From: Escherichia coli
GTDB lineage: Bacteria; Pseudomonadota; Gammaproteobacteria; Enterobacterales; Enterobacteriaceae
DNA: 64,000 bases
Assembly: GCF_051903065.1 (NCBI RefSeq)
Contig: NZ_CP178438.1
Direction: 5' to 3' (one strand)
Position 1 is the first letter of the stretch, and each line of letters starts with the position of its first letter. The notes under the pieces were generated by a model that made no database searches, was not told the origin of the DNA, and was given only the letters and a program-made list of their open reading frames with translations. Below, one piece after another: positions 59,749 to 60,621 of the stretch. Position numbers and translations under genes: made by a program.

Positions 59749-60621
59749 ATGGATGCACCGAGTACTACACCGCATGACGCGGTATTTAAACAATTTTTAA
59801 TGCATGCGGAGACGGCTCGCGACTTTCTGGAGATACATTTGCCAGTGGAATTACGCGAACTTTGTGACCTCAACACGCTTCATTTAGAGTCGGGGAGTTT
59901 CATTGAAGAGAGCCTGAAAGGACACAGCACGGACGTGCTCTATTCCGTGCAAATGCAGGGCAATCCCGGTTATCTGCATGTAGTGATTGAACATCAAAGC
60001 AAGCCAGATCAGAAAATGGCTTTTCGCATGATGCGTTATTCTATTGCCGCCATGCACCGGCATCTGGAGGCTGACCACGATAAGCTGCCGCTGGTGGTGC
60101 CGATACTGTTTTATCAGGGCGAGGCCACACCTTATCCGCTCTCAATGTGCTGGTTTGATATGTTTTACTCGCCTGAGCTGGCGCGACGCGTCTATAACAG
60201 TCCTTTCCCGCTGGTGGATATCACCATCACACCGGATGACGAAATCATGCAACATCGGCGGATTGCGATTCTCGAACTACTGCAAAAACATATTCGCCAG
60301 CGCGACTTAATGTTATTGCTGGAGCAACTGGTCACGCTGATTGACGAAGGGTACACTAGCGGAAGTCAGTTAGTTGCCATGCAAAACTATATGCTGCAAC
60401 GCGGTCATACTGAACAAGCGGATTTGTTTTACGGTGTGTTGAGAGACAGGGAAACGGGAGGGGAGTCTATGATGACGCTGGCGCAGTGGTTTGAAGAGAG
60501 GGGAAGACAGGAGGAAAGGCAAGAATTCGTCCTGCGTCTTCTGAATAAAGGAATGTCTCGGGAAGACGTTGCAGAGATGGCAAATTTACCCCTTGCCGAG
60601 ATTGATAAGCTGATTAACTAA
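59749..60621 (+). CDS. rpnC: Recombination-promoting nuclease RpnC (YadD; YhgA-like PD-(D/E)xK nuclease) with a type-A C-terminal tail
   Basis: 290-aa ORF; N-terminal region with YhgA-like/transposase_31-type nuclease motifs; here 10 codons shorter than the 300 aa I recall for K-12 YadD and ending with a different tail. Confidence 0.85.
   Translation: MDAPSTTPHDAVFKQFLMHAETARDFLEIHLPVELRELCDLNTLHLESGSFIEESLKGHSTDVLYSVQMQGNPGYLHVVIEHQSKPDQKMAFRMMRYSIAAMHRHLEADHDKLPLVVPILFYQGEATPYPLSMCWFDMFYSPELARRVYNSPFPLVDITITPDDEIMQHRRIAILELLQKHIRQRDLMLLLEQLVTLIDEGYTSGSQLVAMQNYMLQRGHTEQADLFYGVLRDRETGGESMMTLAQWFEERGRQEERQEFVLRLLNKGMSREDVAEMANLPLAEIDKLIN

Follow-up and report, generated by a model that had tools for sequence, protein, structure and literature searches.

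The purine-rich Shine–Dalgarno (SD) run and the double ATG that lie inside rpnC are very probably an internal translation initiation site of this gene, from which the small protein RpnC-S is made. The site was noticed in a stretch of Escherichia coli DNA of 64,000 nt (the window), to which all coordinates refer. The finding is correct but already known: the work of Zhong et al. 2023 (PMC10400941) and of Meydan et al. 2019 (10.1101/520783) precedes it, and the start site itself adds nothing beyond these reports. What is added here is evidence of within-species constraint around the start and a length mismatch, seen in every pair compared, between the nested tail and a second tail encoded downstream. 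The features on which the argument turns are the following.

59749..60621, + strand: rpnC (yadD), the ORF of RpnC-L, 290 aa, a PD-(D/E)XK nuclease (toxin) with a C-terminal tail
60456..60465, + strand: internal SD run GGGAGGGGAG, with a GGAGG core at 60457-60461 and a second GGAG at 60462-60465
60469..60474, + strand: tandem ATG ATG, in frame, codons 241 and 242, the very probable translation start of rpnC-S
60469..60621, + strand: rpnC-S, nested in frame in rpnC, a predicted antitoxin of 50 aa from the first ATG (ATG1) or 49 aa from the second (ATG2)

In the mechanism that we propose, ribosomes would load at the GGAGG core and, in the window allele, at the second GGAG as well, and would start translation in frame at ATG 60469 and/or ATG 60472 on an mRNA that is probably for the most part a short transcript beginning within rpnC. 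The product, RpnC-S, would be an acidic, helical protein of 49-50 aa with the same sequence as the C-terminal tail of RpnC-L, and it is predicted to bind the matching RpnC-L tail via its long first helix, by which the DNA-cleaving toxicity would be blocked. Since the same DNA encodes both proteins, the number of four-residue repeats, and with it the length of the helix, is always equal in the two. On its own, rpnC would be a self-contained RpnLS-type toxin–antitoxin pair with a proposed function in phage defence; such defence has been demonstrated only for the plasmid system RpnP2-LS, not for RpnC (PMC10400941), and the chromosomal rpnC may share this role.

The position of the site is given by simple arithmetic, (60469 − 59749)/3 = 240, which places the two ATGs at codons 241 and 242 of rpnC, in frame. 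An earlier note on this DNA had described an SD at 60456-60465 followed by an in-frame ATG ATG at 60469-60474, and the sequence confirms this. The spacing of about 7 nt that it gave holds for the GGAGG core, which is separated from ATG1 by 7 nt and from ATG2 by 10 nt, and not for the full purine run, which stops 3 nt before ATG1; for the second GGAG, the distances are 3 nt to ATG1 and 6 nt to ATG2. The claim that the site falls at the boundary where the homology of the tail module begins is borne out by a direct repeat whose first base, 60474, is also the last of ATG2 and which pairs with 60722 onward in the downstream copy. The claimed C-terminal product of 50 aa and about 6 kDa agrees with the 50 aa and 5.95 kDa encoded from ATG1 to the stop codon (5,951 Da from ATG1, 5,820 Da from ATG2; pI 4.76).

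The SD/ATG pair inside rpnC is more than chance. Duplex energies with the anti-SD at the 3′ end of 16S rRNA were scored for the 460 internal in-frame ATGs of all 54 window ORFs with 200 aa or more, and the ATGs at 60469 and 60472, both at −10.8 kcal/mol, ranked first and second, ahead of the next-best internal ATGs at −9.1 and −7.7 kcal/mol. Of the 54 ORFs, a single one has a candidate start whose SD matches the rpnC internal site in strength. The start of rpnC itself (59749) reaches −4.2 kcal/mol, and the stronger internal signal fits the reported excess of RpnS over RpnL (PMC10400941).

One may ask whether the purines merely encode the Gly-Gly-Glu of an inter-domain linker, with ordinary methionines after it and no separate protein. 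GGA GGG GAG does spell these residues, and as residue 239 can be Glu, Lys or Gln, part of the purine run is unconstrained. However, the 24 E. coli loci compared differ widely in tail length but not in GGGAGGG, where even the synonymous third base of the GGA codon is fixed, nor in either ATG; within the purine run, only base 60463 (G, A or C) varies. A 63-nt probe over the internal start matches 5,115 of 5,426 complete genomes, in all except one with at least 95% identity. The K-12 paralogs rpnA, rpnB, rpnD and rpnE, moreover, each have the strongest of their late internal SD/ATG pairs at the homologous methionine, as AAGGAG-N6-ATG at M244 in rpnA, rpnB and rpnE and as AGGGAG-N6-ATG at M245 in rpnD. 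The SD is encoded there by Lys-Glu or Arg-Glu, whereas in rpnC it is encoded by Gly-Gly-Glu, and the building of the same signal from different amino acids speaks for selection acting on the RNA signal, not the peptide. The first rank among the 460 internal ATGs also speaks against a mere linker, as do the profiling signal and the tagged small protein published for the identical K-12 sequence (PMC10400941). A profiling peak together with loss of the small protein upon SD/ATG mutation has already been demonstrated for rpnA, and partly for rpnC as well. We consider the linker-only explanation very improbable.

Base 60463 is the first base of codon 239, and the many alleles without G at this position lose the proximal GGAG and keep the upstream GGAGG. 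Variation at this base could tune the choice between ATG1 and ATG2, or the output of RpnC-S.

The in-frame small protein that was suggested by analogy with reports on rpn genes has been published for rpnC itself (Zhong et al., Meydan et al.). In K-12, a start-site ribosome-profiling signal (retapamulin/Onc112) was reported at rpnC, and chromosomal SPA tagging in MG1655 revealed all five small Rpn proteins, including RpnC-S (Fig. 2G of PMC10400941). A transcript start within each rpn gene, for which start sites from dRNA-seq are cited, gives rise to a short and more abundant mRNA, and the RpnS proteins are more abundant than the RpnL proteins (PMC10400941). The same study identified RpnS as the antitoxins of the full-length RpnL nucleases, with RpnS blocking the toxicity of RpnL, the induction of the SOS response and, for RpnA, the nuclease activity in vitro; neutralisation of the long protein by the small one was reported for RpnA, RpnB, RpnP2 and, using an SOS reporter, K-12 RpnC (PMC10400941). 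In addition, Meydan et al. 2019 (10.1101/520783) include yadD among the genes with a conserved in-frame internal start and report that synonymous sites are locally more conserved there. Over 157 nt (60343-60499), a span that includes the SD, both ATGs and 126 nt of upstream sequence, the window does not differ from K-12, so that the K-12 data apply to the window allele as well. From this identity, we infer that the internal start is also used in the window strain. In the annotation of this genome, rpnC should bear a second, nested product, RpnC-S. The case also illustrates that a reader can spot a genuine gene-within-gene antitoxin start from the sequence alone.

A second alternative is that the small C-terminal species arises mainly from proteolysis of RpnC at the linker, the SD-like run being at most an elongation pause. 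It has in its favor that the SD/ATG site falls at a domain boundary and that we found no RBS or start-codon mutant of rpnC itself described in the available part of PMC10400941; the mutants made there were for rpnA, rpnB, rpnP2 and an rpn gene of C. difficile. However, retapamulin and Onc112 trap initiating ribosomes, and a signal was reported at rpnC with these compounds. Furthermore, RBS/start mutations removed the small protein for rpnA and the C. difficile rpn (the rpnB and rpnP2 mutants were designed for its loss), and both the abundance of RpnS over RpnL and the short-transcript start inside each rpn gene run against a proteolytic origin (PMC10400941). We thus regard proteolysis as a highly unlikely main source of the small protein and favor initiation at the internal site.

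With respect to the exact first codon, RpnC-S begins at ATG 60469 and/or ATG 60472. ATG2 aligns with M244 of RpnA, which is residue 1 of the crystallised RpnA-S (PDB 7TH0) and a verified start, the mutation of which abolished RpnA-S (PMC10400941), and ATG2 has the same GGAG-N6-ATG geometry as the starts in rpnA, rpnB, rpnD and rpnE. ATG1 has the better spacing (7 nt) to the invariant GGAGG, and the proximal GGAG is gone in the Lys-239 and Gln-239 alleles.

The closest known system is RpnC-L/RpnC-S of K-12 (b0132; Zhong et al., PMC10400941), which is the same gene at the same panD-panC locus, with identical SD, ATG ATG and 157 nt around them and with the same nuclease domain and catalytic residues. 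We note three differences between the two alleles. First, RpnC of the window has 290 aa, whereas that of K-12 has 300 aa. Second, the first helix in the window protein is shorter by 8 residues (two four-residue units, 24 nt), and the last two residues are absent. Third, the window has a downstream rpnCSs, which K-12 is without. The next relative is RpnA-L/RpnA-S of K-12 (PDB 7TH0), in which M244 aligns with M242 of RpnC and the small product, counted from this methionine, likewise has 49 aa. RpnA and RpnC have in common a GGAG six nt before the ATG, tails that align without gaps and N-terminal domains of the same fold family. They differ in that the tails share only 23% identity and the SD is encoded by Lys-Glu in rpnA versus Gly-Gly-Glu in rpnC, and in that rpnC possesses an additional in-frame ATG as well as an additional GGAGG upstream. 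The traits of RpnLS systems that rpnC possesses are the PF04754 domain, the catalytic residues, the internal SD and start at the nuclease–tail boundary and the variable four-residue repeats.

Within the species, the internal start is embedded in a stretch of rpnC with few synonymous changes.

60289..60498, + strand: stretch of low synonymous variation, codons 181-250, 210 nt, upstream of and across the internal start

Codons 1-252 have 13 distinct sequences among the 15 full-length loci, and across these 13 rpnC alleles only 6 of 70 third-codon positions are polymorphic in codons 181-250, compared with 66 of 180 in codons 1-180 (Fisher p=4e-6); no third-position polymorphism at all occurs in the codon windows 206-220 and 211-225 (60364-60423). 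Since the region of codons 181-250 is the least conserved part of the protein among the paralogs, the scarcity of synonymous changes there fits an embedded promoter, leader and ribosome-binding site. The stretch 60289-60498 may therefore carry the internal promoter and the 5′ leader of a short rpnC-S transcript. The recombination history beside the hypervariable tail could partly contribute to the low synonymous diversity of codons 181-250. In a promoter scan of 59450-61000, nothing upstream of the internal start resembled a sigma-70 promoter at 9/12 or better, and matches were no more numerous than in shuffled sequences. The pair TGGTCA (60329-60334) and TACACT (60352-60357), separated by 17 nt, matches at 8/12 only and was picked by eye, and it is a speculative candidate for the internal promoter. 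The RNA around the internal start (60400-60540) is not unusually folded relative to shuffled sequence (z=+1.15), and we propose no structural switch. An Rfam scan of 59400-61100 returned a single, chance-level match to a fluoride riboswitch near the end of panC (E=0.98; 14 bits, where the gathering score is 34). Two minus-strand ORFs over the internal start, of 50 aa (60370-60522) and 38 aa (60467-60583), were set aside as mechanical ORFs without support.

From ATG2, the RpnC tail aligns with RpnA-S without gaps over 49 aa, and pairwise BLASTP gives 23% identity over 39 residues (E=0.002). The match of the RpnC tail to PF14261 (DUF4351) is weak, at 19.4 bits and below the Pfam cut-off of 25. 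RpnA-S (7TH0) was not recovered from the PDB by sequence, whether the query was the full RpnC or a profile built from RpnC tails. An AlphaFold2 model of the tail is all-helical with a mean pLDDT of 81 and predicted helices at residues 4-11, 14-26, 31-37 and 42-49. A Foldseek search of this model against the PDB gave nothing at E<=0.001, with 7TH0 outside the top 50, a helical model of 50 residues being too small for a decisive match. The best matches, which are non-significant, are to helix-turn-helix domains (KorB, resolvases), in line with the helix-turn-helix resemblance that Zhong et al. noted using HHpred (PMC10400941).

Residues 7-207 of RpnC match PF04754 (Transposase_31) with E=2.9e-87 and 292 bits (cut-off 21), and by alignment RpnC keeps D10, D62, E81, Q83, R93 and D164, which correspond to D11, D63, E82, Q84, R94 and D165 of RpnA. 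The requirement for D11, D63, E82 and Q84, and also for R94 and D165 of the PDDE motif, was established with RpnA mutants (PMC5350276); judging from the alignment, RpnC-L thus retains all nuclease catalytic residues known to be needed in RpnA. The gene is flanked by panD (59095-59475, − strand) and panC (60995-61846, − strand). The region 59500-61000 is 100% identical to strain 23CRST027, in which RefSeq names the gene rpnC, and only 44 of 5,482 matching records reach at least 99% identity to the window over this region. Directly past the panC stop, a 12-bp GC-rich hairpin with a T-rich run is found at 60960-60990 (− strand). This terminator-like site separates panC from the convergent rpnC/rpnCSs and could act in either direction.

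Downstream of rpnC, the window contains a second copy of the tail, an arrangement that has been reported for some E. coli strains as rpnCSs (PMC10400941).

60690..60899, + strand: rpnCSs, ORF of a free-standing second tail copy, 69 aa, with the 11-residue N-terminal extension MEIKTRRETRQ

Direct repeats tie this ORF to the rpnC tail, pairing 60474-60524 with 60722-60772 (80% identity) and 60508-60619 with 60780-60891 (85% identity). RefSeq labels the identical sequence a partial pseudogene "missing N-terminus" (60720-60899). However, the ORF 60690-60899 is intact and is probably a whole rpnCSs gene rather than a partial pseudogene. It begins with an ATG preceded by a weak SD (−5.3 kcal/mol at 60690). 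As a duplicated tail gene just after an rpn gene, it resembles YpaA/RpnE-Ss and the rpnCSs of other strains (PMC10400941), a likeness that concerns this neighbouring ORF and not the nested start; its helix length is mismatched in all 13 pairs described below. Of 5,426 complete E. coli genomes, 1,555 have the spacer diagnostic of the two-gene arrangement, and about 71% lack it.

The segment from QWFEE to KGMSRED spans 16 to 44 residues in four-residue steps among the alleles measured. In the rpnC of the window it has 16 residues (RGRQ EERQ EFVLRLLN), the shortest in the sample, compared with 24 in K-12 and 44 in the longest allele measured. In the rpnCSs of the window, the segment has 24 residues, and the first helix is accordingly 8 residues longer than in RpnC-S (60732-60818 versus 60484-60546). 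The S and Ss lengths are unequal in 13 of 13 distinct pairs (loci L003-L010 and L019-L027), with a gap of 6-22 residues in the 12 measured, the sample of pairs being small and not randomly drawn. In K-12, RpnC-S blocks the SOS induction caused by RpnC-LS only at matching repeat number, and one extra four-residue repeat in one RpnC partner alone abolishes protection (PMC10400941). Taken together with this published matching rule, the length mismatch suggests that rpnCSs should not neutralise the neighbouring RpnC.

This bears on a third alternative, in which the internal start is used but rpnCSs is the working antitoxin of the two-gene allele and the nested product is redundant. The presence of a second tail copy at 60690-60899 and the detection of the analogous RpnE-Ss (YpaA) protein by Zhong et al. 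(PMC10400941) would suit such an arrangement. However, the first helix of rpnCSs exceeds that of RpnC-L and RpnC-S by 8 residues here, the lengths disagree in every distinct pair, and a single added repeat was enough to abolish RpnC protection in K-12 (PMC10400941). The SD of rpnCSs is also much weaker than that of the nested start (−5.3 vs. −10.8 kcal/mol), and some 71% of complete E. coli genomes are without the two-gene spacer. We give this alternative very little credence and retain the nested RpnC-S as the predicted antitoxin.

It is possible, though rather doubtful, that rpnCSs is not a spare antitoxin but a mismatched tail cassette, kept as a reservoir for switching tails through recombination with the nested copy, or a guard that would neutralise other, incoming RpnC variants. 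Fusion-like alleles such as L014 end in an Ss-type tail. If the cassette or guard were real, the nested start would be the only source of cognate antitoxin, which would explain its strict conservation.

The end of the L014 tail (NZ_CP025707.1), ...MATLSLTEVDKLINSN, is the same as the end of the downstream copy in L010. Some single-gene alleles (L014 and the K-12-like L001) look from their sequences like fusions of an rpnC body with an Ss-type tail, which would fit the possibility, mentioned by Zhong et al. (PMC10400941), that the two tail repeats recombine and a deletion results. The rpnC tail of ATCC 25922 (L025, NZ_CP037449.1) contains an even longer run of the KGIE type (KGIE x4, KGME, KGIE, KGIQ...). 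Since other long alleles have runs of EVRQ instead, expansion in rpnC has involved no fewer than two kinds of four-residue unit.
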